From the IMG/VR virus record IMGVR_UViG_3300042465_002123, positions 1-56,208 of that record: a DNA stretch of 56,208 bases. One strand, given 5' to 3'. The DNA is from a virus. Lineage: Duplodnaviria; Caudoviricetes. How positions within the stretch are numbered: position 1 is the stretch's first letter; each line of letters starts with the position of its first letter. Of this stretch, positions 7,809 through 53,078 are shown one piece after another. The notes under the pieces are model-generated. The model had not been told where the DNA came from. It saw only the letters and a list, made by a program, of their open reading frames with translations, and ran no database searches. The position numbers and the translations under genes were made by a program.

Positions 7809-8867
7809 TTACCGGGTGTAGACGGAGACGTTCGGAGCAAGGTAGATTGGCGACTTGTCGCGCTCTTCACTTTCGGCCATTTGGAAGTACTTCTCGGCTT
7901 GGCCTTCAAGGTATTGGATGCGCGCCACGTCCACACCGGGTAGCTCTTGCGACATCTGGTGGGCCAGCATGCACTGGATCGCCATGTACCAGCGGTCAGG
8001 AATAGCCAGCTGGCCGCTAAGCGCGCCAACATCCTCGACATAGGCCGAGTACCAAATCGTCATCTGCACAAACGGATCGGACGGCGCCGGCCACAGCGTG
8101 ATAGTGGCCTGCGGTATCGTCCGGTTGAACCAGTACTGAAAGGGCTGGTTGGCCGTGAAATTCTTGTTGGGCAGGTTGGTGTAGTCGTCGCGATTTAAGC
8201 GCGACATTGGGATTTCGGTGGAGTTGTTGCCCACGTAAAACTCGGCCACGTTCAGCGTGCCGCCGCCGGTCTCGCGCATGCGGTAATACTGTGCCGACGC
8301 GCCCGGGTCGACGTCGTACCAAAGCCACTGGCCGCTTTGCCACGTGGTCACGCCGGTGTCGTACAGAGTGTTCCACGTGGAACCATTGTTTGACCACTCC
8401 AACAGGATGTGGAACGAGCCAGACGTCGCCGGCAAGATGCCGATAGAGCCAGCATAAACTGGATTGTCCGTGCCGTAGTTGATGCCAATGTTACCGTTGG
8501 GCGCGGTCTGTACATCCGCTGTAGCGATGTTGTTGTCAAAGGCCAGCGCCGCCGAACCGGAAGACGCAAACGGGTTGCCTGTTGGACGACTCATCGTGCG
8601 GTACAGCGCGTTCAGTACATCGTTGCCACCCACGGGCAGCAAATACTCGTACTGTTCAGCATTCAGGCCGTAGACCTTCTTTTTGATGGCAAAGTATTGG
8701 ATGCCCTGATTGATCAGGTTGCTCAGCAAATAAAACAGGGATTCCTTGGCCGACTGGACCTGCTCGATGGTCAGCTCTTCCGCGAGCTTACCCGCCCGTC
8801 GAGCACCGTGGTCGATGAGCGTTTGGACCGTTATGACGGTCTGACCAACGGTTCCGCTGTAAGCCAT
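7809..8867 (-). CDS. Putative head-tail adaptor / tail tubular protein with inserted beta-sandwich domain
   Basis: 352 aa. N-terminal helical part (SAKESLFYLL..LINQG), C-terminal YTNLPNK...ITLWPAP...IPDRW typical of adaptor proteins; genomic position. Confidence 0.6.
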   Translation of the reverse strand: MAYSGTVGQTVITVQTLIDHGARRAGKLAEELTIEQVQSAKESLFYLLSNLINQGIQYFAIKKKVYGLNAEQYEYLLPVGGNDVLNALYRTMSRPTGNPFASSGSAALAFDNNIATADVQTAPNGNIGINYGTDNPVYAGSIGILPATSGSFHILLEWSNNGSTWNTLYDTGVTTWQSGQWLWYDVDPGASAQYYRMRETGGGTLNVAEFYVGNNSTEIPMSRLNRDDYTNLPNKNFTANQPFQYWFNRTIPQATITLWPAPSDPFVQMTIWYSAYVEDVGALSGQLAIPDRWYMAIQCMLAHQMSQELPGVDVARIQYLEGQAEKYFQMAESEERDKSPIYLAPNVSVYTR

Positions 8868-8877
8868 GTTTTTTCCT

Positions 8878-9129
8878 TTACCAGCCGGGGCAATTCCACC
8901 GCTTTAGCGATGCCTTGGCGCGTGGTGCCTCGCCCTTTGAATGTTCAACCACGCCCGACATACGGGCGCAAAACGAGTCCTTGCGGGCGCCGCCTTGAGG
9001 CTGTGGCGCCTTCAGGTCGCTGCCCGTCTCACGGTTGTATTTTGCCCGACCTTTGGCTGTTAAGCCAGCGCCTTTTGACTCTGGAAGTTTTTCACCCCGG
9101 CCGACCGCTAAAGATGGGTTTTTTGCCAT
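8878..9129 (-). CDS. Small basic conserved phage protein (GLTAKGRAKYN...SFCARM...WNC)
   Basis: 83 aa, Lys/Arg-rich; a motif pattern recurrent in aquatic phage head regions. Confidence 0.7.
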   Translation of the reverse strand: MAKNPSLAVGRGEKLPESKGAGLTAKGRAKYNRETGSDLKAPQPQGGARKDSFCARMSGVVEHSKGEAPRAKASLKRWNCPGW

Positions 9130-9132
9130 GAT

Positions 9133-9879
9133 TTACCAGCAAGACTTTTTAACTTTTCCACCAAATGCTTTTTTCTCGATCATGCCTTCCGGTAACTTGT
9201 TACCCGGCTTGTAAGCGTAGTCGCGGTCGCCCCTGCCAATAGCTTCGCGTTCCGACGCAATAGATTGGCGAAGTAGCTCCCCTTTGGACTCGTACTCTTT
9301 TGGCCCGGGGGATGTATCGCCGGGGCGCCTTAAAAAAGGAGTTAAGTTTAGCGCGCCTGAAACATAAGACTTCACTTTTGTTGAAGTTTTGCCGTGTTCT
9401 TTTTGGTCTTCTTCCAGTCTACGAAGACGACTCATATCAGTAGCCGAAGAGACTGCGCCGCCTTCTTGTTTCTTTACGGTTTTGGCTGATTGCTTGAAGG
9501 CTTCAGCCGTTGGTGCACCTTTGCTGCCAGCTCGACGCATTTTTTCGCCAGAGCCTTCAGAAATTCTTTGACGTTTTGCATGAATATTTTCATAAAGTCC
9601 GCCGCCTTTCATTTTCTTAGACGAAAACAATTTATCAACCATTTCTAACCTCTGAGGTTTAGTTGTTACATCGTTGATGATGTCTATGCGCTCTGCTTTA
9701 TTTTTGCCTGCTTCATAGAACCCGGCTTTTTTTAAAGACTTAACTACACCGCCGGTTTTCATCTTCTTGTCCGCAGCCACAAATTCCTTGCCCACCTTCT
9801 GTGGGACGCCACCAAAGCCGCCTTTGGTATGGGCGGCAGCTTCCATCAGACGGTGCTGGGCAGGTGATTTACTGGGCAC
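9133..9879 (-). CDS. Basic modular protein with four xxGG motifs (putative internal head protein / polyprotein)
   Basis: 248 aa. MKTGGVV, MKGGGLY, KQEGGAV and KAFGGKV separate Lys-rich segments. Confidence 0.7.
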   Translation of the reverse strand: MPSKSPAQHRLMEAAAHTKGGFGGVPQKVGKEFVAADKKMKTGGVVKSLKKAGFYEAGKNKAERIDIINDVTTKPQRLEMVDKLFSSKKMKGGGLYENIHAKRQRISEGSGEKMRRAGSKGAPTAEAFKQSAKTVKKQEGGAVSSATDMSRLRRLEEDQKEHGKTSTKVKSYVSGALNLTPFLRRPGDTSPGPKEYESKGELLRQSIASEREAIGRGDRDYAYKPGNKLPEGMIEKKAFGGKVKKSCW

Positions 9880-10936: not shown

Positions 10937-12070
10937 TTATCGCTTAGCGCTACCGCCCCGTTTACGGGCCATAGGAGGGTTGATAAACCCCCTGCCGGCT
11001 CCCGCTTCGGGTTTGATGCCAAGTAGCTTCTTGATCGCGGAGTACGCTGTGCTTGGGGCGTTACGAATTGTGTTCGCCACGTCCATGTCATCAGCATACT
11101 TATCGCGAGTAGTTGCGTCATAGGCACCTTTGGTCATGTCCCTTGTCATCGAAGAAGCACTTTGAGGCATTGCATCTTCTAACCCACCGCCGGCAAATTT
11201 CCCTACCTTGCCACCCTTTTTAAAGGTGCCAGATTGGGCAGTGTTGCTGACAGGCTTGGAGACAGGGTGCTCAGGCATTGCTACGGCGCGGCCAGCGTTA
11301 TTAACACTGCCCCCCGTAGCGAAATGCTTTTTTGCAGCACCGCCTTTTTTGTAGCCGCCGCCGTTGCCCAGCTTCACATCACCAGTTGGTGCAGAGTTGG
11401 TGTCCGCCTTGGCCGTGCTCATCTTGGTGCTGCCCTTTTTGGACATGATGATGCCGCCTTCTTTGAAGCCGCCCTGACCGTTCACAACGCCACCAGTGGC
11501 GTAGTTACCGGGCTTTGCGGACTTCATGATGCCGCCGGTCTTCAACTTCAACGAAGTACCTTTGCCACCCATGTGCTCTTGCGCGTCATGCTGCTTGAAG
11601 GCCTTTTTGATCATGGCCTTGTCTTCAGCTGTGTCGCTGGCTTTGCCGCCTTTTTTCATGGCAGACATGCCACCCATAGCCGGAGCTGCGGGAAGGGCAC
11701 CAGCAATCGCTGGACGAGTGCCACGGGCTTTCATTGCGCGAAGCATTGCGGCCTTGCGCGGGTCCATCATGCCACCCATAGGAGCACCCATCATGCCGCC
11801 CATGGCCTTCTTGTCTACTTTGCCGCCCTTTTTGGAGTTCAGCATAGCGCCCGACATAGCCTTGCGGCGTTCAGACATTGAAGGTTTTTGGGGAGCGCAA
11901 CCGTCTTCAGCAGCATCTTCGGCCTTGGATGACATGAAGGCTTTACCCTTCATGTTCATGTGACCGTCAGCGTCCTTGTGCTCGGAAGCAACGTGACCAC
12001 CTTTTTTGAGCTTCAGAATAACTGAAGGCTCAGTGGTCTCCATCTTCACCATTGGTTTGAATTGACCCAT
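10937..12070 (-). CDS. Lys/Met/Gly-rich protein with about 12 xxGG repeats (putative internal capsid protein)
   Basis: Start moved to MGQFKPM (12070), which has an AGGAG RBS. Motifs: LKKGGHV, SKKGGKV, KAMGGMM, MKKGGKA, LKTGGIM, YATGGVV, FKEGGII, YKKGGAA, FATGGSV, FKKGGKV, FAGGGLE, RKRGGSA. Confidence 0.75.
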   Translation of the reverse strand: MGQFKPMVKMETTEPSVILKLKKGGHVASEHKDADGHMNMKGKAFMSSKAEDAAEDGCAPQKPSMSERRKAMSGAMLNSKKGGKVDKKAMGGMMGAPMGGMMDPRKAAMLRAMKARGTRPAIAGALPAAPAMGGMSAMKKGGKASDTAEDKAMIKKAFKQHDAQEHMGGKGTSLKLKTGGIMKSAKPGNYATGGVVNGQGGFKEGGIIMSKKGSTKMSTAKADTNSAPTGDVKLGNGGGYKKGGAAKKHFATGGSVNNAGRAVAMPEHPVSKPVSNTAQSGTFKKGGKVGKFAGGGLEDAMPQSASSMTRDMTKGAYDATTRDKYADDMDVANTIRNAPSTAYSAIKKLLGIKPEAGAGRGFINPPMARKRGGSAKR

Positions 12071-12080
12071 GTCGCTCTCC

Positions 12081-13058
12081 TTATGCTTGTGTGACGCCAA
12101 GAGCGCCAATACGGGTTGCATTCGGGCCTGCCGCAATTGCTGGCAGGGCTATTCCCATCACAAGGCGCTTGATGCCGTCCGCCGCCGAAGATGGCAAATA
12201 AGTACCTCGCACATCACCTGTGGTCGTAGTGGCCGTCAACGTAGCGGCAACAGTCATAGTGCCAGCATCTTCAGCCAAGGTGTTATCCCAGCCAGCTCGA
12301 GTAACGTAACCCCTATCAGTAATACGCAATGGCGCACCCAAGATGTCGGTTGTACCTACCGCAACAGTTACCACGCTTGCGCCAGAAGAGACAACACTGG
12401 CAATTTGGTAAAAGGCTTTTTTACCACTGACAGTTGTTGATGCCACTGTTCCTGTTGCAATTACCTCGCTCATGGCTTGACCGTAGTAGTCGTAACCAGA
12501 AACAGTAATGTTGACAGAAGTTGGAGAACCAGCACCAGTGGTTGTAGACACAGCACGAGGGCAGTCAAGTTGCAAGCCTGTTGCACCGCCTGTAATCGTG
12601 GCGGATGTAACACCAGCACCTGCGGCAAGCGTGAGCGTGGTAGCAGTTGTGATGACAGCCGCAACAATGTTGGTTGTCAGTTTTGCTTGTGGTACAGCGT
12701 CCCAAATATAGACACGACCCAACGGGCCAACACCTACGCTCATTGGGGATGGGTTTTGCAACAAAGCATTACCAGAACCAATGATGGTGGCGCTTGCTAC
12801 AGTTTGCGAAGCGCTTACCGTGTAAGTGCCTGTGCCGCCAGAGCCCGTACCGAAAGCGGTAATGTAGGTTCCATTGGTGAGTGACGTTGAACTGTCAATA
12901 AACATACCAACAATAATTGGGTCACCAGAAAGCATTGCGGTGACGGTCAATGTAGTGGTAGCAATTGAGCCAGTAAAGGTTGAAACAGCAGGGTAGGCGT
13001 CCATACCTTGAACGGTAATAGCGGAACCCAAAAACAGGTCGTCAGAAAACTGGGGCAT
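12081..13058 (-). CDS. Putative capsid decoration / minor head protein
   Basis: Start at MPQFSDDL with an AAGGAG RBS; Thr/Ala/Gly-rich beta protein immediately after the major capsid gene. Confidence 0.6.
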
Positions 13059-13128: not shown

Positions 13129-14043
13129 TTAGATACCCGGCGTGCCGTAAGCGGCGCGTGGGTCTGTAAAGCCAACGTCGTAACGCTCAGTGGCCTTGTA
13201 GCGCATAGAGTCGGTCTCGAAATCACCTTCCATGGTTTTCTCGAGGCGACGACGCATGAGCAGCTTAAAGCCTTCTGGTGCATCAGTCTGAACCCAAAAC
13301 GCAGTAGGGCTGGTCAGACGGCTCAGAACAGCAGCGCCCTCGTCCAACAAACCAATGGATTTCACTGGGTTGATGTCGTTGTTGGCGTTGCCGGTGCGCA
13401 GAACCGATTTCAGCAGAACTTCAGCTTGGAAGATGTTGCCCGGGGCGACGATCAGCTGGCGTGGCACCAGACGGATCTTCTTGCCGTTGTTGTCAACGGC
13501 TTGACGCACTTGGATCAGCATCTGCTCGAGCGAGGTCTGCGACAGGTTGGCAGCAGTAGCCAACTGGTTGCTGAACACGCCGTTCACAATTGGGTGCGAA
13601 GTGCTGATCAGCGGCACGCCATCACCACTGTTCGTGGTGTTGGTGAACGCTGTGTTCAACACGTTAGCCGACAGCAGTTCTTTGGTTTCCACCAGAGACT
13701 GTGCCAGATGGCGTGCATACACTTGGCCCAAACGGATGTGATCGCCGTCTTCCACCAGCACTTTGGTCAGGGCAAAAGCCAGACCGTAGACGCGGTAGAC
13801 GTAGCGCTTGAGGAACAACACACCACCTTGTTGGTACGTGACCGGAGTGCCGTCAGGCAGCTGAGGTGCAGCACCGAAACCGTACAGGACGGGTTCTTCG
13901 TGGTAGTTGCGTGGGATGCCGTCTTCTTGGCGGAACACACGGCTCCACTCATCGGCGCGTTGGTCGTAAACACCATCGAAACATTCGTTCAGGATTGGTT
14001 CAACAATCGAACGAAAGTCCGTACTTCTCATTGGAGCAGCCAT
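13129..14043 (-). CDS. Major capsid protein (HK97 fold, Mu gpT-like family)
   Basis: 304 aa. GFGAAP..PDGT.V.Y, YGLAF.LT...VEDG, GDGVPL.S.SHP, P.QLIV.P, DFETD.MRYKA.ERY..G..DPR..YG. Followed by a terminator. Confidence 0.85.
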   Translation of the reverse strand: MAAPMRSTDFRSIVEPILNECFDGVYDQRADEWSRVFRQEDGIPRNYHEEPVLYGFGAAPQLPDGTPVTYQQGGVLFLKRYVYRVYGLAFALTKVLVEDGDHIRLGQVYARHLAQSLVETKELLSANVLNTAFTNTTNSGDGVPLISTSHPIVNGVFSNQLATAANLSQTSLEQMLIQVRQAVDNNGKKIRLVPRQLIVAPGNIFQAEVLLKSVLRTGNANNDINPVKSIGLLDEGAAVLSRLTSPTAFWVQTDAPEGFKLLMRRRLEKTMEGDFETDSMRYKATERYDVGFTDPRAAYGTPGI

Positions 14044-16183: not shown

Positions 16184-16645
16184 TTAAACGTAGGCTTTGA
16201 ACGACAGCGGGTCATCGGTGACTCGCGCAATCAGTTCGTGGTCATTGATAGTCATGAACAGCACAGGATCTTCCATGCCGTCCTCCCCCGGAACCGGGCG
16301 TTCCCAGCGGTCGCCACCCCAGCGGGGTACGCGGACATAGTCACCTTCGTTAGCCCAGCTACCTTCAGGCCATGAGGCCATCGTGTCGCGGTTCTTGAAT
16401 GCCAAGGGGCCAACTGCAATAACTTTGCCGATCATGTTGTTCCACTTCTCCGCTTCTTTGGTCTCGGAAACCAAAATAATCCGACTGCCGGAGGCAGTCT
16501 TCTTAATGCGTCGAAGCTGGACAATGATGCGGCCACCAAAGGGTGCTTGACCCGGGTTTACGTCTGGAAATGCCCATGCCAATTCGGCAGGATCAGACGC
16601 GCCTTGACTACCCTCGACGAGGGTAATTTTATGCTCTTCACTCAT
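16184..16645 (-). CDS. GroES/Cpn10-like co-chaperonin
   Basis: Start MSEEHK with an AGGAG RBS. PFGGRIIVQ..KKTASGSRIIL..GKVIAVGPLA..GDYV...INDHELIARV matches the Cpn10 pattern. Confidence 0.85.
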   Translation of the reverse strand: MSEEHKITLVEGSQGASDPAELAWAFPDVNPGQAPFGGRIIVQLRRIKKTASGSRIILVSETKEAEKWNNMIGKVIAVGPLAFKNRDTMASWPEGSWANEGDYVRVPRWGGDRWERPVPGEDGMEDPVLFMTINDHELIARVTDDPLSFKAYV

Positions 16646-16663
16646 ACTAACTCTCCTAACTAA

Positions 16664-16702
16664 AAACCATATTTCAGGTTTGACGTGCGCATATTTCAGC
16701 GC
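16664..16702 (-). promoter_or_regulatory. Twin stem-loops with an identical UGAAAUAU loop in the groES-like leader
   Basis: Minus strand reads GCGC-TGAAATAT-GCGC (16702-16687) and AAACC-TGAAATAT-GGTTT (16681-16664). Confidence 0.6.
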
Positions 16703-16721
16703 GGCTTGGGGCCTTGCGGCC

Positions 16722-16892
16722 TTATTCGTTCTCGGCGAGTTTTGCGTTGAGGGTGTCCAAGGTCCATTGCAGACCCTGATACTCACCCACAACGCGCATG
16801 TAAATCTCGTAATCGCTTACGGGATTTTCCACCAACGACATGCGGATTTCCGCCTGCCGATGTTTAAGCTGATGAATCAGCTCTACGATCAT
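16722..16892 (-). CDS. Small 56-aa protein (not in the ORF track)
   Basis: MIVELIHQLKHRQAEIRMSLVENPVSDYEIYMRVVGEYQGLQWTLDTLNAKLAENE; ATGA overlap with the upstream gene. Confidence 0.75.
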   Translation of the reverse strand: MIVELIHQLKHRQAEIRMSLVENPVSDYEIYMRVVGEYQGLQWTLDTLNAKLAENE

Positions 16893-17057: not shown

Positions 17058-19541
17058 TTAAACTCCTTCAGGTGGCATAAATGCCGGTTGGTTAAGCGAT
17101 TCGTGCGCCATTCTAGCTTGCTCAATCTGTAACTTGGCTTGATTGTTTATCTCAGCAATCTGTAACTGCAAATCGTTGTCGGCTTGCGTTTCCTGAGCCT
17201 TGGCCTGCATTTGGGCTTGAGCGCGCTGCTGGCCGTCTTGCAGCTTGGCTTGGGCAATCTGCCCGTCCTGCTGGTCCTTGGCGGCTTTGCGCTGGGTCTC
17301 GGCCATGGCGGTGTCTTTGACAACCTGAGCGTCGGGCGGCAGCTGGGGCTGGGGCTTGTTCTGCTGCATGATCTGCGTGAGCTGCTGGAGCTGGGGCATG
17401 ATCTGCGCAAATACCTGCTCGCTGTCCAGCGCAACGTGCTGGCCGACGGTGGCGTACAGCTTGTCAATGGTCGCCGTCAGGGCTGGGTTCTCGTAGTCGT
17501 CCACCGGCTTGCCGCGCAAGTTTTCCACGTAGCCGTTCATGCGGTTCAGATACCACAGCGTCATGTGCTGCTTGATGTGCTCCACCGCGTTGGGCAGGAA
17601 CTGGGGCGCGATAAACGGGTTGGCACCAAAGGACGGGTCCATGCCGAACATCAAGTGGCCTTGGATGTGCGCGATGTGGTCCTGCTGCATGTAGGCATAC
17701 GCAGTGTGCCCGATAGCCATGGCCGCGTTCTCGTCGGCCAGCGTGCGCTGCTCGGGGGCTGGCACGTTCTTGAGCAGCTCGTCGACATTGGGTATCTTGA
17801 GCTGCTTGAGGAAGCGCTCCTCGACAGCCTTGGCCTCGTACAGGTCAGGTTTGGAGTCCGCACGGGACAGCACGGCCTGCATCTGCGCCATGCGCTGGGT
17901 CTCGCTGAAGATGTGCGGGTCGCTGACCGGGATGACATCAGTGTTTTTCAGGAAGTCATCGCGCTCGATTTCAAGGTCCGCGACCATGTCGCCCTTGCGC
18001 ATCTCGTCAAAGTGCCAGCGGTTCAGGCGGCAGAGCACTTTAATCAAGCGGGCTTGCGACTGGTGCAGGCGCGCATGGATGGCCGAGTAGACAGCAGCGC
18101 CTTGCTCGATCAGGGCCTGCGTGGTGCCCACAGGGGCGTTGGCGTTGACATCGGCGATCTTCTCTTCACTGGTAGTGACCACGCCCTTGGCCGCGCTGTC
18201 CAGCCAGCCAAGCAGCTGGAACAGAACCTGCGACGGTGGGTTGAACGGCATCGGCATGGCAATCTTGCGGATGTCGTCCACGCCGGGTGCGCCCTCGATC
18301 TCGGCCACCTGAGTGACCTCGATCTGCTGGGTCTGGCCGCTGATCTTCGCGCCCTTGAGCTTGAGCATGGTAGCGGCGTTGTTGATGTGCGCAGAGTCCA
18401 GCAGGGCCCGCAGGGAACCCGTCAGGGCCGCGCTCAGGCCACCAATGAGGTGAGGTAGCCCGATGGCAAACACGCCGCGCCACGGGATGAACTTGAATTC
18501 AATGATCCAGTCCAGCTTGTCCATGGTCTCGTCGCCCTCTTCCCAGTTACGGTAGAGGCCGATGACTTCATTGCTTTGCTCGTCCACCATCATGATGTAC
18601 GGAGCCATCTCGCCCTTGGAAAACTTGTCTTCGTTAAATTCCAAATGGGTGTAGATGTGGAAGACCTTGCGCAGGCCGTCCTCGTTGTCTTGGAACTTGC
18701 GGCCCTCGATCTTGTCGTTGGCCTTCTGGGCGCGGCTTTGCTCGGGTTCCATGGAGGTGGCAAACGAGCCGCCTTCCTTGTACATGCCGTTGGTCACGCG
18801 CCGGTTGTATTCCCACTCGGTAATCTCGTGGACCTCGGCCATGCGCTGGGCCGTGTAGAAGTTCGATGCCGCAAACGGCAAGATCACGCGGTCAATGGGC
18901 AAAAACTCGATGACCGGGCGCTTCTTCTGCTCGTCGTACCAGAGCTTGAGATACTGCGAGCCGCCCAGCGGCAGCTGAGTCAGCATCTGCTCTTGCTCGT
19001 CGCGGAACTCTTCGATCTGCTCGGTAATCTGCCAGTTTAGGAAGTCCCGCTTGCGCTCAGCGCGCTGGGTTTTCAACTCGTCAACAGCGCCAAGGATCTT
19101 GGTGCGGACGGGGCCGTCTGGTGGATACAGCTCTTTGATGGCACGGGACGCAAAGTCCACGCAGCCCTCGGCCATGACCGGGTGGACGGCGCGGCTGGCG
19201 CCCATGAAGTTCGCGCCGCCGGGGGCGTCCTTGCCCAATCCGGTGCGCTTGAGGCCTTCCTCGTACTGTTTGTCGCGCTCCTCACGGGCGTTCTTGTCCT
19301 TGTCTAACAGCTCGATGTAGCGCATCGCCAGCGTGTCAAGGTCGTGGCTGTCCGTGTTTTCGGCCATGTTCGCGTAGAAGTCGGGAGACTGCTCGGGGCC
19401 TTTGGTTTCCATGTCCACAATGACCGAGCCGTCCGGCATCTCGGTCAGCTCAGTAAATTCCTCGTCCAGATCAACTTCGGCCGAGCCGTCCTCGTTGAGG
19501 GACTCGTCGGGCAGGTTCTCGTCGTCTTGGGGGTTCATCAT
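17058..19541 (-). CDS. Portal protein
   Basis: 827 aa. GASRAVHPVMAE..VDF.SRA.KEL.P..GPVRT.I.G, L..LPL.GS.Y.K.WYD, Gln-rich C-terminal barrel; position after the terminase. Confidence 0.88.
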   Translation of the reverse strand: MMNPQDDENLPDESLNEDGSAEVDLDEEFTELTEMPDGSVIVDMETKGPEQSPDFYANMAENTDSHDLDTLAMRYIELLDKDKNAREERDKQYEEGLKRTGLGKDAPGGANFMGASRAVHPVMAEGCVDFASRAIKELYPPDGPVRTKILGAVDELKTQRAERKRDFLNWQITEQIEEFRDEQEQMLTQLPLGGSQYLKLWYDEQKKRPVIEFLPIDRVILPFAASNFYTAQRMAEVHEITEWEYNRRVTNGMYKEGGSFATSMEPEQSRAQKANDKIEGRKFQDNEDGLRKVFHIYTHLEFNEDKFSKGEMAPYIMMVDEQSNEVIGLYRNWEEGDETMDKLDWIIEFKFIPWRGVFAIGLPHLIGGLSAALTGSLRALLDSAHINNAATMLKLKGAKISGQTQQIEVTQVAEIEGAPGVDDIRKIAMPMPFNPPSQVLFQLLGWLDSAAKGVVTTSEEKIADVNANAPVGTTQALIEQGAAVYSAIHARLHQSQARLIKVLCRLNRWHFDEMRKGDMVADLEIERDDFLKNTDVIPVSDPHIFSETQRMAQMQAVLSRADSKPDLYEAKAVEERFLKQLKIPNVDELLKNVPAPEQRTLADENAAMAIGHTAYAYMQQDHIAHIQGHLMFGMDPSFGANPFIAPQFLPNAVEHIKQHMTLWYLNRMNGYVENLRGKPVDDYENPALTATIDKLYATVGQHVALDSEQVFAQIMPQLQQLTQIMQQNKPQPQLPPDAQVVKDTAMAETQRKAAKDQQDGQIAQAKLQDGQQRAQAQMQAKAQETQADNDLQLQIAEINNQAKLQIEQARMAHESLNQPAFMPPEGV

Positions 19542-22390
19542 TTGACCTTTTTGGTGAAGTGCTTGGCACTCATCAGCTCGTACATCATCACGTCCTTGTC
19601 GGGGGATACTGTAACTCGTTCTTTAATTATGCCACGCGAGATGGGCTTGATTGTTTCACGTGAAACCATGCCGCCATGGGCCAATACCTTGCGGGCCACG
19701 ATGCCGTGCCCAACATCGCGTTCCTGTTCATACCGCACAGGATCAGATAGGGGGTACAAGTGCTTGGTGTTGCCGCCAATATCAAACGCTGATCCTTCGG
19801 GCACGTGGTGCTTGTCTTCCAGCGCCCGAAACTTTTGCTTGTTGACCACCGTGGGTTCACCGATAGTTACCTCGCCAATTGCTTTGGCCTTGCCCTCGCC
19901 CGTTCTGACAATAGCCACTCGCTTGCCCACGTAAGGCCGCAAAGTGTCACTGTTACGGGACTCAAAAGTCTTGTGGCCGTCCACAATCATGTCAGCATAC
20001 TTGCGGTCTGACTTACGGTCTGAAGCCACATTAATGCCCATTACAGAGCCGCCATCAGCGTAGGTCTCGCGCTTGCCGTAGGTGGGCTTGTGGGCCAGCA
20101 CCAGCGGGCCGATCTGCACAACGTGGGCCGAGTGTGTGACCGGTTTCAGGGTCTTGCGGTCGTAGAAAAAACCATGGCGCCGGGGGTCCATGCCCACCTG
20201 AGCGTAGTCCGGGTTGTTCAGGTGCTCTTTCATGTGCTCCACCGCCTCGTCCTCGGTCATGTGGTGCAGCTCGCCCTTAATACGGGCAAAAGGTGACTTG
20301 TTTTGCTCGCCAGTGGCAACTTTGATTGCTTTTTCGGGGCCGGCGTCAAAGGTGGCGTTTTTTACGGACGAAACAGGGGCGTAAGAGGTCTTGAGCTTGT
20401 CGCCCTCGCGGCCTTCCTCGTCGTGGATTGAATTAACCCACACGCCGTGCTGCTCGTAAGCTGGAATGTCCAGCCGCAGGCCCACTTTTCGGCCGGCAGG
20501 CCACTTTGAGTGACCACGCCACTGCGGCTTTTTGTTCTCCATCAGCGCCCGGTCAGCATCTTCGTCCGATGCAGGCTGCGGGACAAAGTCGTATGGCTTG
20601 ACCGGCTTGTGCTTTTTGACCACGCGGTCGTATTCCTTGCGGTCGATGGCGCCAGCTTGCAGCGCCTTGGCTGCGGCCTCCATCTCAGGGATCTTGCGCT
20701 GGATCGTTTCGTCCTTTGTCGTGGGTCGAACTTCAACCTCGCCACCGCTTTTGTACAGCGGGATGCCGTTCTTCGTCACGTCCTCGCGCATCTCAGGGGT
20801 GATTGGGAAGCTGTGCAAGCGCTTTGCGTTGATGTCGTCCAGCTTGGCGTGAAAGACATCTTTTTCCTCCCGCGACATTGCAGCGTAGTCTTGCGGGCTG
20901 ACTCCCAACTTCATGGCGGTATCGCTGCGCCCGTTTGGGTCACCCGGTATCTGGACCTGCCCAACCTGCGCGCCGTACTTCTTGCCGAACTGGTTCAAGA
21001 ACTTGGGCACCATCTTGTCGTAGAAGCCCTTCATGCCCTCGCCACCCACGTCAAGGTTTGCGTTGTCAAGGTAACGCTCGCCTTTCTTGTCTGGCTCCGT
21101 GCTTAGCAATTTGTTTGCAAGCTCTTTACCAATGTGGCTTTCCAATTTCTCTGGAGTCACTGTGTCATCAACCACCCTTCGTTGATTTTTATCATAGGCA
21201 ACATAGTAATAAGGGTGGGTGTCTTTGTTTGGAAATTCGTTTGGATATAGCTCAATGCGGTCAATATGCTTTGCCAAACTGTACCGCTTGGCCTGCTCCT
21301 CGCCCGGTGTGATGGCGATGGAGTCGTAGCCCTTCTCGGCGGCGTGCTGGATCATGCGCTTGAGCGCCAGCTCGTGCCAGTTCTTCTTGTACGGGGCGTC
21401 GGGCACTCCGCTTTGACTGAACATTCGCTGGTAATCAGCTTCCGCTTCATGCCGCGCTTGATCGGCCTTCATGACTTGCGGCATAAGTTCCATGATCTTG
21501 TTGTTGTGGAACCGCAGTTGCGATTCGTATTCAGCTCGTCGCGGCGTAGTTACGCTACTATTTTCCGGGTCAATTGCTCCAAGCCGGTCGCTCAAAGTGT
21601 TTGACCAACTCTTAGACTCTTGCAAATCGTTTTTTACCCGTATGTGCGCAAACTTGGCTTGCTGTGCTCGGCCATACGCGGCATCTATCAGCTCTTGGTG
21701 GTTCTTAGGAAGGTAGCCCTTCTCGCGGCCGGTCTGGTGCCAGTCCGACTGAATCTCCTCAAGGTGCAGAATCTTCTCGCCGTTGGGGCCGGTGCGATCC
21801 TTGACGCGGATGCTGGCAAGAATGTCAGGCTCATCGCCAAAGTGCCCGCCCAAGCCCTCAAAGCCGCCGTTTTGGGGGTTGGGGTGCTTGAGCAAAATCT
21901 CGCGGTAGTTGCTGCCACCGGGCAACGTCCACTCCTCGTGATGCGTTGGCCCTGCTTTAAAGCCAGACTTTTGCTCGACCTCACGCCTAAAACTCTCAAA
22001 ATGCTCCGGGCGGGATGCGCGCATCCGTCTCATGGTTTCATTTCGTATTGCGCGAGCTTCGCTGCTGCTTTCGGCATTTTCGGCTTGAGTTGAGGCGGTC
22101 TGCCTGATGTATTGATTAACTTGCTTGTTTACTGCTTTAAGGGAAAAAGGTTTCCGCTCGCCCAATACCACCTCATCCGGTTTTGTAACGCGCTTGGCCC
22201 TGAGCGCCTTGAGAAAGTCCTCACGCGCCATCTTGGGCAGGGCCGTGAGCGTCTGCAAGTCGCGGTCCTCCACCTCGGCCTGCTTGTAGCCGGGTTTCTT
22301 GCTCAGCTCGGTCATGAACTCAGCGCCCGTGCCCTTGGGCCGGGTCAGCTCACTGGCAAGCCGGTCGATGGGGGAGTATGCGTTTCTCAC
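19538..22390 (-). CDS. Large modular (polyvalent-type) protein: EEIQSDW domain + unknown domain + ASCH/PUA-like domain
   Basis: 950 aa. Domains are delimited by YKSGGEV, YADGGSV and LAHGGMV. ASCH signature YADMIVDGHKTFESR...VGKRVAIV...AIGEVTI. Confidence 0.7.
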   Translation of the reverse strand: MRNAYSPIDRLASELTRPKGTGAEFMTELSKKPGYKQAEVEDRDLQTLTALPKMAREDFLKALRAKRVTKPDEVVLGERKPFSLKAVNKQVNQYIRQTASTQAENAESSSEARAIRNETMRRMRASRPEHFESFRREVEQKSGFKAGPTHHEEWTLPGGSNYREILLKHPNPQNGGFEGLGGHFGDEPDILASIRVKDRTGPNGEKILHLEEIQSDWHQTGREKGYLPKNHQELIDAAYGRAQQAKFAHIRVKNDLQESKSWSNTLSDRLGAIDPENSSVTTPRRAEYESQLRFHNNKIMELMPQVMKADQARHEAEADYQRMFSQSGVPDAPYKKNWHELALKRMIQHAAEKGYDSIAITPGEEQAKRYSLAKHIDRIELYPNEFPNKDTHPYYYVAYDKNQRRVVDDTVTPEKLESHIGKELANKLLSTEPDKKGERYLDNANLDVGGEGMKGFYDKMVPKFLNQFGKKYGAQVGQVQIPGDPNGRSDTAMKLGVSPQDYAAMSREEKDVFHAKLDDINAKRLHSFPITPEMREDVTKNGIPLYKSGGEVEVRPTTKDETIQRKIPEMEAAAKALQAGAIDRKEYDRVVKKHKPVKPYDFVPQPASDEDADRALMENKKPQWRGHSKWPAGRKVGLRLDIPAYEQHGVWVNSIHDEEGREGDKLKTSYAPVSSVKNATFDAGPEKAIKVATGEQNKSPFARIKGELHHMTEDEAVEHMKEHLNNPDYAQVGMDPRRHGFFYDRKTLKPVTHSAHVVQIGPLVLAHKPTYGKRETYADGGSVMGINVASDRKSDRKYADMIVDGHKTFESRNSDTLRPYVGKRVAIVRTGEGKAKAIGEVTIGEPTVVNKQKFRALEDKHHVPEGSAFDIGGNTKHLYPLSDPVRYEQERDVGHGIVARKVLAHGGMVSRETIKPISRGIIKERVTVSPDKDVMMYELMSAKHFTKKVK

Positions 22391-25300
22391 AGTGGCCGCT
22401 CCTCAAGGCTGATGTCACCGACCCGTCCGCCCCGGGCCATCACGCGGCCCTTGATAGCCGACTCGGGGATATGGAACTCGGACGAATCGTCGCCCTGCTG
22501 GTACCGGACGTGGTAACCCGGCTCATACGGCGTGCGCATGGTCTTGCCGGTCTGCGGGTCCTTGCGGGCCTTGAGCGTTTTTTCATCCACCACCGGTTGA
22601 TTGCCGTAGGCTACGCGCCGGATGATGGTATACGGGGGCTTGTTCTTCTTGGCACTGTCGTCGGTAAACACGCGATGACCCGCGTCGTACTTGAACGGCA
22701 TTGACTCAATTAAATCCTGCATATTTGCTGCGCCTTCGCGGACTCGATCACCCAGCGAGGTGTGGAAGTCCTGCATGTTGGTCAGCTGCTTGTTGGCGAC
22801 CACGGGCTCCTTCATGCCGGACGACTTGGCTGCGCCGGCGATGGCCCTGCGCATCTCCTCCACCGACGGGTTGGTCGAGCCACCGCCGGCCATGCGCGGC
22901 ATGCCGGGTGGGGTGGCGCGCATGGCCGACATGGCCTGACCTTGTGGCGTCAGCTGGAGGATGTTGCTCTGCGGGCCTTGGGGCATGCCCTGCGGGGGCT
23001 GGCCGAATGTACCTTGGGGTGGCATGCCTTGAGGGGCTTGCGCGTCCTGTGGGGGCTGTCCAAGCTGCCCTTGGGGCATGGCCGGCAGCATCTGGTGGCC
23101 GGGGTTCTCGGGCTGGAAGTCCACGCCGCCGACGGGCATGCCGCCGGCGCCGGGTGGCATGTACAGCTTGACCGGCATGGCTGGGGCCTCCTCGACGCCC
23201 ACGTTGGACGGCTTGACGCCGCCGCCATCGGCAAGGTACTGCATTGGGTCGGTCCCGGGCATGTCCGATGGGCCTCCTTCGTAGTCGCCGAAGTCGGTGG
23301 AAATGCCGTTGGCCGCGTCGGGTGCAACTGGACCGCCTGCTGCCTTGTGCAGCATGACATGGGCCAGCATCTCGTCGGGGTTGGTGGACATGCGAACTTT
23401 GGTGCGGGGGCGTTGACGGTGGTGTGCCCGACCGCCTCGCTCCTCCATGTCAGCGCGCAGGGCAAGGTGCCGCTGGGAATGGTAGTTGCGCTCGGGGAAT
23501 GCGTGGAAGTCGTCGTCGCCCAGCCCGCTGTCGTCGCGGTCGTTGTACACGCGCCCGCCCTCAGCGTAGAACTTGACGGGCTGCGGTGGCACGTACTCTT
23601 TGCCTGCGCTCTTGATCTGCTCGCTCGGTGCGTCGATCTCGTACTCGCCCTTGTTCTTGAGCGCGTGCTCGACGTGCTTGGCGTTGACGTGGTGGGTGAA
23701 CGATGTCTGGTGCCCAAGGTTGCTGGTTGACTCGGTCGGCGTGGTCATCAAGAGGTGGCCGGCCTTCTTGCCGTTCTTGGTCATAAAGCGGTTCTTTGGC
23801 AAGAACTCCTCGTCCTTGAACCGGGAGTCGGTCGGGATCATGTGCGGCGTGCCATCGTCGTTCTTGCCCACTTGCACCAGACGCGGGTGCAGGATGTGCT
23901 GCTTCTGGTAGTCAAAGCGCATGTCCTTGAGCGTGGTGTGGCCGAAGTGCGCCTTCTCCGGCGTGGTGGGCTTGCCGTTTGGCCCAAAATGACCCTCTGG
24001 GCCTTCAGCCTTCTCATCCTCGGTCAACTCGCTTTGCGGCCGGCCGGTGGACCAGTACTTGCCGTGGGTGATGGCCTTTTCCATGTTCTTTGCCAGCGGC
24101 GATCCGCGCTTGACATCAGTGACCATGTACGAGCCCTTGGGCGGTGTCAGGTTGCCCTGCTCGTTCTTGAAGTCGCCCTTGTTGTCAGCGGCCATCACGG
24201 TGTTGCGCACGCGGGATTTGTCGCGGGCGATGTTCTCGGCGATGGATGCGCCCTTCTTGGTCTTGGGGCCGACGTTGGAGTGCGTGACGTAGTAGCCGTT
24301 CTCGGGGTCGTGCAGCTCGTTGGTCTTGCCGTATGAGTTGGCAATGATGTCCGGCTTGTCCTCCATCCTGCGCTGCTCGTTCAAGTGCCGGATGGCATGC
24401 CGTGAGGTGACGTCGGTCTCGTCCACCACGTTGGGGCGGAACAGCAGACGCTCGTTGTTCTTGTCGGCCATGCGCGCTGCGTTGCGCAACGACCCGGTGT
24501 GTGCCAGTATCCAGTCCTTGGTCATGGCCGGGTCGTGCTTGGCCTGCTCGTGGCTGGCCCGACGCACGGCAGCGTTGACGTACTGCGCCTCCGCGTTGGG
24601 TGCGAAGCATGTGCCCTTGCTGGTGTCCACGATGCCGTTGGTATCAGTGCCGCCGCCGCAGCCCACGGTCTGACCGGGGCAGGTGTTGACCACGTGGTGC
24701 TTCTCGTTCTCACCTTGGCCCGATGTGTACAGGGAGTGGCCCGCCACGCCTTTGGACGCAAAGCCCACATGGGTGCGGCCCTGCTCGTCGTGCTCGTGGC
24801 GCACGGTGTCGAGCTTCTCGGACTTGTCCAGCGTGTTGGCGTTCTTGCCGATGTGCTTGGCTGCGCGCAGCCGTTCCAGCGCGCTTTCCTCATCGGCATG
24901 CTGCTGGTCCAGTGGCTTGGCAAAGTGCTCGGCCAGTGTGGCCCGGTGGATCTTGCCGATCTGGCCGAGGGTCAATGGGTCGCGGTTCTCGGCGCCGTAC
25001 ACCTTGGCCCGTGCCGCGTTGACGTCCTGCATGCCCTCGACCTTGCGACCGCCTTCACCCTTGTAGGTCTTGCCTTCCCACATGTGGCGGGGGACGACGA
25101 TGCCCTTGACACCGCCCGGTCCCTCGGCGTCAATCTTGACGCGGGTTGACGGGGTGCTCGCCTTTGCGGCCAGTTCGGCACGCATCTGGTCGGGGGTTGG
25201 GGTATCGGCCATGGTTTGGTCCTTTGAGGTTGTCTTGTCATTATCGACAGCACCGCCGTCTTTGTACGGCACTTTTTTACGCTGAGCGGTCCTGTTGTCG

Positions 25301-26146: not shown

Positions 26147-27565
26147 TTATGTGTCATAGGGGTTGGTGTGGTGCCGCTTGTCGGCGTCTGCGTAGTCCGA
26201 CTCGTCCACCCACTCGGTCGGGAAGTCGATGGTCAGCCAGCCGGCGTCGCGCAGGTAACGCAGCGCCTGACTCATGGCGTCCACGAAGTCGTCGTGGGTC
26301 GTGCCCTCCGGGAAGCTGCACACCTGACTGACCATGCCCTCGGCCCAGTCGCGCACGAAGCCCTTGCGGTTGCTCGACTCGGGTATCCAGACGCGGCCGG
26401 CCTTGATCACGTTGGCGACGATGGACAGCCGCTGTATCTTGTCGGCCCTGCCCGGGTTGTACGCCTGCACCGGCACGCCTGCGCGCTGCAAGTCTTGGAT
26501 CAGGCTGATGCCGGCGGACTTGTCCTCAATCAGCAGCAGGTCCACGCGCTTCTTCTCCCGGCCGTCGCCGTAGACCGTCTCGAACTCGTCGAGGATCTTG
26601 GGCCGCAGGTCGGGGTACTGCAAGTGGTCCTGCCAGCAGTCGATGACCATGGCGCACATGCCGCCGTCCTCTGGCTTGAACACGCCGAAGGTGATGTGGG
26701 CCGTCGGGTCGTTGTGCGTCTTCTCGCTGGCTGCGCAGTCCACGCTCTGCACGATGTACTCGAACTTGGGGAACGCCCGCGCTGCCGGCCACAGCTTGAA
26801 CCAGTCGCGCTTGACAATGCCCGACTCTTCGGGGTCAATGATCTCCGCGTGGATCTCCTGCCGGCCGAGCTTGGTGCCCTCGTACTGGAGGATCTGCTTC
26901 TGGAAGCTGGGCGCCAAGTTGGCGATGTTCACGTAGGTGCTGGCCGTGGTCACCACCACGTCGGTGCCGTCGCGCTCAATCAGGTCCATGATCACCGGCT
27001 TTGGCTTGGGTGTGGTGGAGCAGATGATGCGGGTGCGCTGGCCCAGCCGGACCGCGAACTGGATCATGTCCCACGCCTCTTGCAGGTACTCCCACGCGGC
27101 CAGCTCGTCAAGCCACGCACCGTGCCACTGACCGCCCCGGAAGCGCTCAGGCTCGGATGCGGGTATACCCTTGATCAGCGAGCCGTTGGCCAGCGTGATC
27201 TCGTGCAGGCTGCTGTTGTACTTTCCGATTAGCTCGGGCGGTATGACGGCGATCAGGCCGGACTCGCCCTCAAAGCATGTGCCGCGCAAGTCGGCACTGG
27301 TTGGCGCGCTAACCAGCCAGCGGGTGTTGGGCGCCTCCCATGCCCACCAGCCGATGGTCTCCGCCGATGTGCGGGTCTTGCCGGAGCCCCGGCCACCGAG
27401 CATGAGCCAGATGGCCCAATCCTCGCCGACGGGCTCGAGCTGGAACTTATGAGCGCGCATGAGCCAGCGCGCACGCCAGTCAAAGGCGGTGCGCAGGTTG
27501 ACGGGTAGCTGGGCATATTGCTCCCTGATCTCGGGGGCTTCCAGCAGCGCTTCGAGGTTACTCAC
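26147..27565 (-). CDS. terL: Terminase large subunit
   Basis: 472 aa. Walker A LGGRGSGKT, Walker B WLDE, coupling motif STTPK, nuclease domain SVD...IEDKSAG...HDDFVDA. Confidence 0.95.
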   Translation of the reverse strand: MSNLEALLEAPEIREQYAQLPVNLRTAFDWRARWLMRAHKFQLEPVGEDWAIWLMLGGRGSGKTRTSAETIGWWAWEAPNTRWLVSAPTSADLRGTCFEGESGLIAVIPPELIGKYNSSLHEITLANGSLIKGIPASEPERFRGGQWHGAWLDELAAWEYLQEAWDMIQFAVRLGQRTRIICSTTPKPKPVIMDLIERDGTDVVVTTASTYVNIANLAPSFQKQILQYEGTKLGRQEIHAEIIDPEESGIVKRDWFKLWPAARAFPKFEYIVQSVDCAASEKTHNDPTAHITFGVFKPEDGGMCAMVIDCWQDHLQYPDLRPKILDEFETVYGDGREKKRVDLLLIEDKSAGISLIQDLQRAGVPVQAYNPGRADKIQRLSIVANVIKAGRVWIPESSNRKGFVRDWAEGMVSQVCSFPEGTTHDDFVDAMSQALRYLRDAGWLTIDFPTEWVDESDYADADKRHHTNPYDT

Positions 27566-48542: not shown

Positions 48543-49186
48543 TTGAGCGGTATTCCTGCTTTTGATCGTTCTTGGCACTTAAAGCATGTGCCGCATACTT
48601 TGTTAAAACAAGTAAGAACCAAGGGTTTTACATCGTCGGGGATCAGTGCCCACTGCTCAGCTTTTTTCATGTGTGACAAAGGTGTTTTTAACCGGCTGTC
48701 TCCAGTCATAAGACCTATGAACGCCTCCATGGCCCCTCTCATTTGGGGGTTTACGGCTGTGGTGTCTTCGTCGTTCAAGCCATAGTACAAGTTTTGGATT
48801 TGTGGGTTGTAAACGGTCAGCATCCCCAAAAAGAACGAAATGTACCAGCGTTGAAACGAGTATTTGTACTCAGGCTTTTCGTGCCTTAGCGTCCCCAAGT
48901 TGGTCATAAGAAGATCAATTTCCATCAATGGAACATCAAGTTTCTTTGCAATTTTTCTGGCGTTGATTCTTTGCGTGGCAAGCCACTCTTCTATTGGCCC
49001 ATAAGGCGGCGCAGGCAACGACAGAGCAAAATTAAAGGCAACTATTTTTTCACCGCGTTCTTTGGCCCATGCCATTACGGCCGTGGACTCAACGCCCCCC
49101 GAAAACGCAACAACGCCGGTGTACTCATCCAACGGAATTTTTGCAACCTCGGGCGGAAGGGGGAAATAGTTCATTTTTGTCATCAA
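48539..49186 (-). CDS. QueC-like PP-loop ATPase (7-cyano-7-deazaguanine synthase family)
   Basis: 215 aa. VAFSGGVES PP-loop, YYG...ED, TPL..M.K, C-terminal C...CGTCFKC.ER zinc motif. Confidence 0.7.
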   Translation of the reverse strand: MMTKMNYFPLPPEVAKIPLDEYTGVVAFSGGVESTAVMAWAKERGEKIVAFNFALSLPAPPYGPIEEWLATQRINARKIAKKLDVPLMEIDLLMTNLGTLRHEKPEYKYSFQRWYISFFLGMLTVYNPQIQNLYYGLNDEDTTAVNPQMRGAMEAFIGLMTGDSRLKTPLSHMKKAEQWALIPDDVKPLVLTCFNKVCGTCFKCQERSKAGIPLK

Positions 49187-52439: not shown

Positions 52440-53078
52440 TTAGGAGTCCTGTGCGATAGCTTGACGATCACCGATGCGCAGCTGGTCCTCGGTCTTGAGA
52501 GCGGCCACGGCGGCGCTAAACAGCCCCGACCAGACGGCTAACCGGGCGTCGTCTTTTAGGAACGGCGCGGTCTGCTTGAGCGTGCCAAAAAGCATAGCGT
52601 TGGGCGCGTTCTGCGTCAGCCAGTTGGTCTGCGTGGCCGAGTCTAGCGGCTGCAAGCGGGTGTAGCAGAGTGCCTCAAAGGCATAAGCTGAATTGGGCGT
52701 AGGCGCGACGAACCAGTTGTCGTAGTCATAGTCGGCGTAGAACAGCGGCGTGTCGGTGGCCGTTACGGTAGGCCAGTAGTTGTTCAAATACTCCAGCTTG
52801 CGCAGAAGCACCGGCTGCTTGCCGGTGGGCGTCGTAACGGTCATGGAGACCGTCTTGCGCCAGCGCGCCGGTTTTTGGATCACGGGGTTGCCGATCTCCA
52901 TGTTCGCGGTCACCACCTCCATCTGGCCCAGCGTCTTGATGTCCTGCGCGATCTCAAACTCGGCCAGCGTAATGGCCGTTGGAATAAAGGCGACGACCGC
53001 AGGGTCACTGCGCTCCAAATACTGGAGCACTAGGTTTGTTAGCGAGTCGTATGTGAGGACAAAGGAAGGCGTTGTCAT
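52440..53078 (-). CDS. Head-tail adaptor-like protein
   Basis: 212 aa. TYDSL...V..YLER.D, I.LAE..I, APTP, TNWLT.NAP..MLFG.L....PFLK.D.R...W. Confidence 0.65.
   Translation of the reverse strand: MTTPSFVLTYDSLTNLVLQYLERSDPAVVAFIPTAITLAEFEIAQDIKTLGQMEVVTANMEIGNPVIQKPARWRKTVSMTVTTPTGKQPVLLRKLEYLNNYWPTVTATDTPLFYADYDYDNWFVAPTPNSAYAFEALCYTRLQPLDSATQTNWLTQNAPNAMLFGTLKQTAPFLKDDARLAVWSGLFSAAVAALKTEDQLRIGDRQAIAQDS

Follow-up and report, generated by a model that had tools for sequence, protein, structure and literature searches.

A hypervariable slot before the portal gene of an uncultured phage holds a two-gene train of mobile modules with di-glycine junctions, a candidate head-loaded polyvalent cargo

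Why should a phage place a long multidomain protein between its large terminase and its portal, and what is such a protein for? The question is raised by p950, a 950-amino-acid (aa) protein encoded by an uncultured phage (Duplodnaviria; Caudoviricetes) in the IMG/VR record IMGVR_UViG_3300042465_002123. The record, which was analyzed over its whole length of 56,208 bases (hereafter the window), is the complete entry and has a completeness estimate of 94%. The open reading frame (ORF) is present as described in an original prediction made from the sequence alone, which presented it as a train of three domains each closed by an xxGG motif. The strings quoted there (LPGGSNYREILL, EEIQSDWHQ, ALKRMIQHAAEKGYDSIAI, GLRLDIPAY and GMDPRRHGFFYDR) all occur in the translation of p950, and the three motifs lie at exactly the coordinates given. 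The location between terminase and portal is also correct, but the slot contains two genes, p1237 and p950, rather than one (Table 1). On balance, and cautiously, we lean towards reading p1237 and p950 as the two wagons of a polyvalent cargo train, which occupies a hypervariable terminase–portal slot of this ~56-kb phage and is loaded into the head and ejected from it.

p950 contains the pattern [YFLM]xxGGxV three times, whereas composition-preserving shuffles average 0.05 and none of 5000 reached three. Two AlphaFold models, one of module 1 (42-sequence alignment) and one of aa 541–950 (23-sequence alignment, mean predicted local distance difference test score, pLDDT, 70.8), set the motifs in low-confidence linkers outside the folds, in agreement with separate modules; in neither model are they buried within a continuous fold. 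Module 1 is modeled with a pLDDT of 91.6 and a predicted template modeling score of 0.81, and its residues 549–555 fall below 50. The low-confidence segments of the second model are aa 541–545, aa 775–796, which contain motif 2, and aa 895–950, which contain motif 3 and the C-terminus. The scheme of three domains closed by three motifs holds as far as the motifs are concerned, but it omits a fourth conserved element, a C-terminal tail (aa ~910–950) that follows motif 3.

HMMER, run in full against 1.84 billion cluster representatives, returned 12,125 that match p950 (E ≤ 0.001), and the best 150 of them span 313–5508 aa. The homologous blocks of these 150 map onto p950 as module 1 at ~4–555, in three conserved pieces, module 2 at ~548–784, the ASCH domain of module 3 at ~778–908, and the tail at ~905–950. 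The modules are not tied to a fixed order, and homologues contain them singly as well as rearranged. The order is ASCH, module 2, module 1 in P0005, ASCH followed by module 2 in P0010–P0013, and module 2 followed by module 1 in P0054, while the giant proteins P0081, P0092 and P0123 contain two or three copies of module 1 deep inside. Stand-alone homologues, which the original prediction proposed to look for, were found; Foldseek gave no significant Protein Data Bank (PDB) fold for modules 1 and 2.

The organization of the family was examined in near-length homologues, namely the best 120 for module 1 (119 once the query's own cluster was dropped). Module 1 is N-terminal in 113 of the 119, and the tail closes 109. 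The C-terminal end of module 1 could be mapped in 73, of which 72 have GGx[VIL] at that point. These regularities define the family plan as module 1, GG, variable payload, GG, tail. The Pfam families found behind module 1 in the 120 proteins are ART-PolyVal (22), ASCH (19, including the query's own cluster), GNAT (4), PcfJ (2), PF26151 (2) and a GDSL lipase (1); the other 71 have no Pfam family, and ASCH is one among several alternative payloads. Every name that the sources give among the 120 is 'hypothetical protein'.

The slot is equally variable in related phages. An IMG/VR portal scan gave 574 relatives, and in the best 80 of them (portals 68–87% identical) the space between terminase and portal is filled by one to three large ORFs made of shuffled or fused p950 and p1237 modules. 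Fusions of the two sets reach 1998 aa in a single ORF, and the train of locus L087 runs ASCH, module 2, module 1 and then two parts of p1237. In 87 distinct slot ORFs, 39 of the 57 junctions between mapped modules have the motif. A Pfam analysis of 42 of the 99 distinct slot ORFs, chosen mostly for having the most sequence unmapped to p950 or p1237, identified ART-PolyVal (12), ASCH (4), GDSL lipase (3), PcfJ (3), LPD23 (2), GP88 (2) and DUF3990 (1). Where the train is split over two genes (among loci L010–L084), the first wagon ends in ...ER.L in 28 of 28 cases and overlaps the next start by 4 nt; in all, 44 distinct ORFs run up to the start of the last pre-portal ORF, 28 of them first wagons and 16 of them terminases or other genes. 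A G-G pair (GG[ST]T or GGxV) precedes this end by about a dozen residues in 22 of the 28, and the end of p1237, ...EERPL, fits the same pattern. In fused relatives, the position of the first-wagon end (window 22387–22440) reads as an ordinary junction cassette.

Polyvalent proteins, as set out in the main text of Iyer, Burroughs, Anand, de Souza and Aravind (2017, PMC5512222), are large multidomain proteins whose genes neighbor those for virion packaging and for which packaging and injection are predicted. p950 comprises three modules that fold and occur separately, plus the tail, with ASCH as the only one belonging to a named family, and its gene lies among the head and packaging genes, from the large terminase to the portal, whose start it overlaps. 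Its connection to the polyvalent domain network is by association: ART-PolyVal is present in 4 of 18 giant homologues, 12 of the 42 slot ORFs and 22 of the 120 near-length proteins, and homologues of modules 1 and 2 are also partnered by LPD22/23/37/38, PBECR5, RadC, PcfJ and InPase. The 18 giants additionally contain LPD38 (3), LPD22 (3), Phage_L5_gp82 (2) and, once each, LPD37, DUF7178, PBECR5, RadC, GP88 and PcfJ. Because its homologues co-occur with canonical domains of this kind, p950 is regarded as polyvalent cargo whose gene sits in the hypervariable slot before the portal. The kinship proposed by the original prediction is borne out for the homologous modules, which are fused to canonical polyvalent domains, but p950 itself carries none.

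Over the 150 homologues, the junction has the consensus [Y/K/M/F]-A-[K/E/D]-G-G-x-[V/I], and GGx[VI] occurs 484 times compared with 121 ± 7 in shuffles. The residue that follows the glycines varies (K, S, A, E, G). At most 12 residues from a module end, GGx[VIL] is present for 29 of 41 copies of module 2, 46 of 60 of module 1 and 11 of 13 of ASCH; eight further module-2 ends show [YFL]xxGG variants, which brings the GG motif to 37 of 41, and the four without GG are all in giant proteins. Each module family has its own extended C-terminal version of the motif. Different copies of the motif use different codons, and neither the window nor L087, L077 and L070 showed long direct DNA repeats at their junctions, which implies that selection acts on the peptide; for the same reasons, DNA microhomology as the driver of shuffling is unsupported. 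In the slot ORFs of relatives, the motif is commonly followed by a helix, P-[TS]-x-[DEQ]-[EQ]-M-[RK]-x-[AE]-L, which is found 134 times compared with 22 ± 5 in shuffles, 82 of these copies being at most 30 residues after a GG motif. Since some ORFs of relatives start with this helix, the natural unit looks like helix, module, GG.

Two side observations concern the junction. Among cultured phages, Roseobacter phage CRP-207 and Puniceispirillum phage HMO-2011 bear the motif. Gp58 of CRP-207 (locus L001) contains at aa ~411–500, after module 2 and two GG motifs, a conserved ~55-aa element that is common to 18 phage records (HMO-2011/CRP type) and to Rhizobium phages, always with a hypothetical annotation; this element may be akin to the junction cassette but longer. 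The GroES mobile loop also contains GG, and the junction motif resembles it in form only: it lacks the hydrophobic triplet that should follow GG, and no GroES is annotated in CRP-207 although the motif is present there.

The tail shows a comparable constancy. Wherever a homologue has the last ~35 residues of p950, they form its extreme C-terminus (23 of 23), and the 56 distinct tail versions of relatives all close the last ORF ahead of the portal. Alignment of 50 tails shows an M that never changes and conservation of 90% or more for G, D, L and two K. A tail hidden Markov model (HMM) produced 78 significant C-terminal matches and one significant internal match, with weak ones falling on linker helices inside cargo ORFs.

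These features bear on the view that the junctions are passive linkers, in which GG would be a flexible hinge inherited with each module that neither binds a partner nor is cleaved, and the tail would be kept for another purpose, for example translational coupling to the portal. The flanks of the motif do merge into the modules, as PLY, the end of module 1, runs into motif 1 and the strand VEV right after motif 1 belongs to module 2. The separate motif versions of the module families point in the same direction, as do the 4-nt overlaps that chain p1237 to p950 and p950 to the portal gene. The same seven-residue pattern, however, is found in unrelated modules, Pfam domains and low-complexity proteins of distant phages, whereas plain linkers are rarely conserved, and the variation in motif codons together with the lack of long junction repeats argues for selection at the peptide level. 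Moreover, the invariant residues of the tail are encoded by several synonymous codons, and its conserved part stops ~15–35 codons ahead of the portal start. Purely passive linkers are accordingly judged very unlikely.

Module 1, described originally as one domain, proved to be a composite of blocks aa 4–72, 146–240 and 325–553 and a coiled-coil hairpin at 231–325. The hairpin helices (231–272 and 275–325 in the model) form a stretch that is variable or absent among homologues. The invariant residues of the module include Y162, R163 and E164; E212, Q214, S215, D216, W217 and H218; and K336, W338 and E340. Neither module 1 nor module 2 has a Pfam or NCBIfam family or a relative among PDB sequences in single-sequence and profile searches, and the ESM Atlas gave nothing significant with which to name them. 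Foldseek found no significant PDB match for module 1. The GNAT-like topology suggested for it is not supported, GNAT structures appearing only as non-significant Foldseek matches (PDB E 0.23–0.28, TM-score 0.24–0.28; BFVD E 0.04–0.1), with none in the PDB profile search and no Pfam GNAT match. SMC/Rad50 heads were likewise rejected as the fold (E ≥ 5e-3, TM ≤ 0.15), and their appearance probably reflects the helical hairpin. Against BFVD, module 1 gave 28 matches with E ≤ 0.001, all of them predicted structures from uncultured phages, some named for GP88, ART-PolyVal, LPD or lytic transglycosylase domains. The sole PHROG match of modules 1 and 2, a 2564-position profile labeled endolysin that covers aa 316–481, is not significant. 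Their many invariant polar residues suggest that modules 1 and 2, both strongly conserved, are probably enzymatic.

The constant position of module 1 at the N-terminus (113 of 119) and its long helical hairpin could also fit a structural role, in which module 1 and the hairpin would form an internal core or a trans-envelope conduit like the ejection proteins of T7 and P22, with the other modules as accessories. A partial module-1 homologue is indeed found in the block of internal virion protein genes of Pelagibacter phage HTVC028P. Yet the trains of several related phages lack module 1 (L041, L044, L048–L051 and L059–L069, among others), which makes it dispensable for this head type. In addition, its invariant charged and polar residues look catalytic, and the multiple copies placed deep in giant polyvalent proteins do not suit a core component. 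This alternative is regarded as distinctly unlikely.

Module 2 is a compact block with pLDDT 70–96, mostly 82–96, and has 53 invariant columns in the 23-sequence alignment; in homologues it occurs alone or in changed order. It has no Pfam family, no PDB-sequence match and no significant Foldseek PDB fold, and the sortase and ASCH structures returned by Foldseek were not adopted as fold names (probability ≤0.4). Module 3 is confirmed as the ASCH domain of the original prediction, with PF04266 matching aa 796–867 (E 1.2e-6, 29.6 bits against a cut-off of 21.2). The string GHKTFESR near the start of the domain fits G-x-K-x-x-E-x-R, which we take to be the N-terminal signature of the ASCH family. 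As to a PUA-like beta-barrel fold, the region is modeled with pLDDT of only 62–75, and ASCH/EVE structures are among its best Foldseek matches, which are weak (E 0.4–0.9, TM 0.27–0.32). Elsewhere in the window, a gene for a QueC-like protein (PF06508, E 1.5e-11) points to a 7-deazaguanine pathway, and the phage DNA may be modified; this may matter for the payload, ASCH being a domain type linked to modified bases.

The motif is not confined to p950. p1237 has four copies of [YFLM]xxGGxV, compared with 0.09 expected and 0 of 5000 shuffles, and one extra GGPV brings its GGxV count to five. A basic, low-complexity protein of 399 aa, encoded just after the capsid genes, contains six GGx[VI] and several additional K-x-G-G variants. 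Its homologue in MW202545 (449 aa) retains the motifs and begins at residues equivalent to M23, so the true start of the ORF is probably near 12070; the 399-aa protein could be an internal DNA-associated protein. A 248-aa protein consists of three small modules each closed by GGxV, and includes phrog_16759 at aa 1–46 and phrog_16028 at aa 93–138. In the same stretch (8878–9879, minus strand), the next gene encodes a free-standing DUF6321 (E 3.6e-17), a domain that forms the C-terminus of 372–928-aa proteins in several PHROG families. The 248-aa protein and the DUF6321 proteins look like small-scale versions of the bead-on-a-string design of the cargo train. With copies in four virion-module proteins, the motif is a phage-wide trait rather than a peculiarity of p950. 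It also extends to an unrelated phage, MW202675, in which a 739-aa protein is arranged as GNAT (64–121), motif (214), Peptidase_M15_3 (294–378), motif (409) and ART-PolyVal (569–721), and an 898-aa protein has the motif at 722, shortly ahead of InPase (734–865).

Polyprotein processing is the most serious competitor to cargo loading, although we consider it somewhat unlikely. The GG junctions would be cut during head maturation or after ejection, which would free the modules and remove the tail. Such processing could act on the train as well as on the 248-aa protein and the basic 399-aa one, following the logic of T4 capsid targeting and of GG|X cleavage in adenovirus and African swine fever virus (ASFV). 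Fixed anchor residues surround two glycines in exposed linkers; the motif is present in four virion-module proteins, among them the basic low-complexity one, which cleavage would turn into short basic peptides; several virion proteins terminate a few basic residues past a GG motif; and some ORFs start with the helix usually found after it. Cleavage of polyvalent proteins by peptidases has been proposed in the main text of PMC5512222.

The search for a protease was nevertheless largely negative. Pfam searches of 34 window proteins detected no protease family other than an M15 cell-wall peptidase, though a remote or novel protease is possible. A zincin acting in cis was rejected, as HExxH is absent from p950, p1237 and the head proteins; an HxxEH string in module 2 was the only cargo match of the zincin-type search. 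One relative's train does contain an H-E-x-x-H segment between module 1 and module 2, in a 924-aa pre-portal ORF (L022/L023), and this segment may represent a zincin-like peptidase module of some trains. In the 80 loci no module is present in every train, which excludes a universal protease in cis, and the head-gene set equals that of the motif-free Caulobacter phage RW (portal 46% identical), so that no head gene is left over to encode a dedicated protease. The variable residue after GG also counts against cleavage. The proteomics of the unrelated phage phiRIO-1 reported no processing, as far as the portion of PMC4819975 consulted goes.

A combined scheme, which we hold to be unlikely, would treat GG junction, helix and tail as a portable load-and-cut code, by which flanked modules would enter the procapsid and afterwards be cleaved at G-G by a phage or host protease that has escaped recognition. 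If so, the train would count as a polyprotein of a bacteriophage, and the 399-aa protein would give rise to core peptides associated with DNA, a convergent counterpart of the GG|X processing of adenovirus and ASFV core proteins.

By analogy with known systems, p950 is probably carried in the virus head and injected into the host. The cargo-loading interpretation anticipates that the tail, and probably the repeated junction cassettes, would serve as head-incorporation tags, holding a bead-on-a-string protein in the assembling procapsid by the portal. The GG hinges would allow modules to fold and unfold independently, such that the chain could thread through the portal and the tail channel with the DNA, and the payload modules would then act separately in the host, with nucleic acid or modified bases as the possible target of ASCH. 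We infer packaging, docking, ejection and any anti-defense activity from the position of the gene, from the main text of PMC5512222 and from the place of the HTVC028P homologue; the sequence and model data directly show the modular build and its shuffling, the placement of motifs in linkers, conservation of the peptide, the layout of the slot and the link to polyvalent-protein domains.

Several observations weigh against cargo loading. The papers searched contain no virion proteome of a motif-bearing relative, and no receptor was identified. A by-eye likeness of the tail and linker helices to the scaffold C-terminus, which might have indicated mimicry, was not borne out: with filters off, the tail HMM gave 0 matches on the scaffold ORFs of 62 loci in the database. 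Pfam and NCBIfam scans found neither a Pfam polyvalent-protein domain nor a MuF anchor in p950. As for module 1, its many invariant polar residues are as compatible with an enzyme as with a carrier. The module-1 homologues of HTVC028P and Dolichospermum phage Dfl-JY45 lack the motif, which is therefore not required wherever module 1 occurs. Finally, in Caulobacter phage RW the terminase and portal genes have nothing between them, and both cargo and motif are absent, which neither points to a receptor nor excludes one.

The wider head block on the minus strand comprises the large terminase, p1237, p950, the portal, a GroES-like gene, a scaffold-like gene and the major capsid protein. The portal of MW202545 is 65% identical to that of the window. 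The GroES-like gene scores 18.6 bits for Cpn10, under the cut-off of 21.1, and matches phrog_3188 (co-chaperonin); it is kept at the equivalent place in MW202545 and phage RW and is also present in MW202675. Two SU10-adaptor-like genes were found, one strong (E 3e-20) and one below threshold (E 0.0023). As these and other tail-type genes lie at both linear ends, the record is probably circularly permuted. A tail-fiber-like protein of 959 aa combines Gly_rich_2 (E 2.3e-29) with a C-terminal SPRY domain (E 7.4e-10) and has eight consecutive glycines near its N-terminus.

Table 1. Positions in the window of p950, its parts and the other genes discussed.
Feature	Position	Strand	Basis or remark
p950 (second wagon of the pre-portal cargo locus), 950 aa, GTG start	19538-22390	-	ORF; homologues begin at residues 1-4
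Module 1, aa 1-545	20756-22390	-	constant N-terminal module of the family
Long helical hairpin inserted in module 1, aa 231-325	21416-21700	-	AlphaFold model
Junction motif 1, YKSGGEV	20735-20755	-	aa 549-555, pLDDT <50
Module 2, aa 553-776	20063-20734	-	mobile alpha/beta module
Junction motif 2, YADGGSV	20042-20062	-	aa 775-796 pLDDT <50
Module 3 (ASCH), aa 784-902	19685-20041	-	Pfam PF04266
Junction motif 3, LAHGGMV	19664-19684	-	within low-confidence aa 895-950
C-terminal tail, aa 910-950	19541-19663	-	helix D-x-M-x-x-E-L then basic end
p1237 (first wagon), 1237 aa	22387-26100	-	ORF; upstream of p950
p1237 motifs	25246-25266, 23548-23568, 23326-23346, 23215-23235, 22420-22440	-	pattern search
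Large terminase	26147-27565	-	Pfam Terminase_6N/6C
Portal gene, directly downstream of p950	17058-19541	-	phrog_1216, E 1.2e-18
GroES-like gene	16184-16792	-	in head block
Major capsid protein	13129-14043	-	Phage_capsid_4
399-aa low-complexity K/G/A/M-rich basic virion-module protein	10937-12136	-	6 GGx[VI] (five GGxV and one GGII)
248-aa protein, three small modules each closed by GGxV	9133-9879	-	3 GGxV
QueC-like protein	48539-49186	-	PF06508
SU10-adaptor-like genes (two)	52440-53078, 7809-8867	-	
Tail-fiber-like protein, 959 aa	1235-4114	-	Gly_rich_2, SPRY

The family is very large and essentially unannotated, and its hypervariable pre-portal slot provides a natural list of candidate early-acting effectors, including ASCH, ART-PolyVal, GNAT, PcfJ, a lipase and many unnamed modules. 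A junction and constant tail traveling with any slot payload offer a hypothesis for how injected proteins, in particular polyvalent proteins without MuF, are loaded into heads. A code of this type could serve to load chosen proteins into capsids.

Like the polyvalent proteins of PMC5512222, as presented in its main text, the p950 family combines unrelated domains and lies beside packaging genes; unlike them, p950 has neither MuF nor Pfam polyvalent domains, and its gene precedes the portal instead of following it. The words 'glycine', 'linker' and 'ASCH' have 0 occurrences each in that main text, which accordingly does not describe the junction motif, the helix, the tail or an ASCH payload; polymorphic toxins are mentioned there. 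The literature searched, which did not cover subscription journals, contains no description of the motif, helix, tail or pre-portal slot. Polyvalent proteins are already known, and these four features are new within that literature.

The internal proteins of T4 carry an N-terminal capsid targeting sequence that brings unrelated proteins into the procapsid; they are later injected, some of them counter host defense, and the tag is removed by the gp21 prohead protease. The parallel would be a short terminal peptide on otherwise unrelated proteins. By contrast, the T4 tag is N-terminal and the gp21 site is of a different type, whereas the constant putative tag of p950 is C-terminal, its junctions repeat internally and no protease was found. 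In adenovirus and ASFV, core precursors undergo GG|X processing at exposed two-glycine motifs that have an upstream hydrophobic residue and are repeated in several proteins, basic ones included, as is the case here; the hydrophobic anchor of the phage motif, however, is one position farther from GG, and no cysteine protease of that clan was detected. Polymorphic toxins, with a constant N-terminal part, swappable C-terminal domains and fast cassette exchange, share with the p950 family the combination of a constant N-terminus and swappable parts, but p950 resides in a virion block, has a constant tail after the variable part and is without an immunity gene or a secretion domain.

SPP1 gp7 and Mu gpF (MuF) are products of portal-adjacent genes that travel in the head and leave it together with the DNA. 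The p950 gene likewise adjoins the portal gene, but it lies upstream of it. MuF is the anchor of many polyvalent proteins according to the main text of PMC5512222, whereas in p950, which has no MuF domain, the candidate anchor is the ~35-aa tail.

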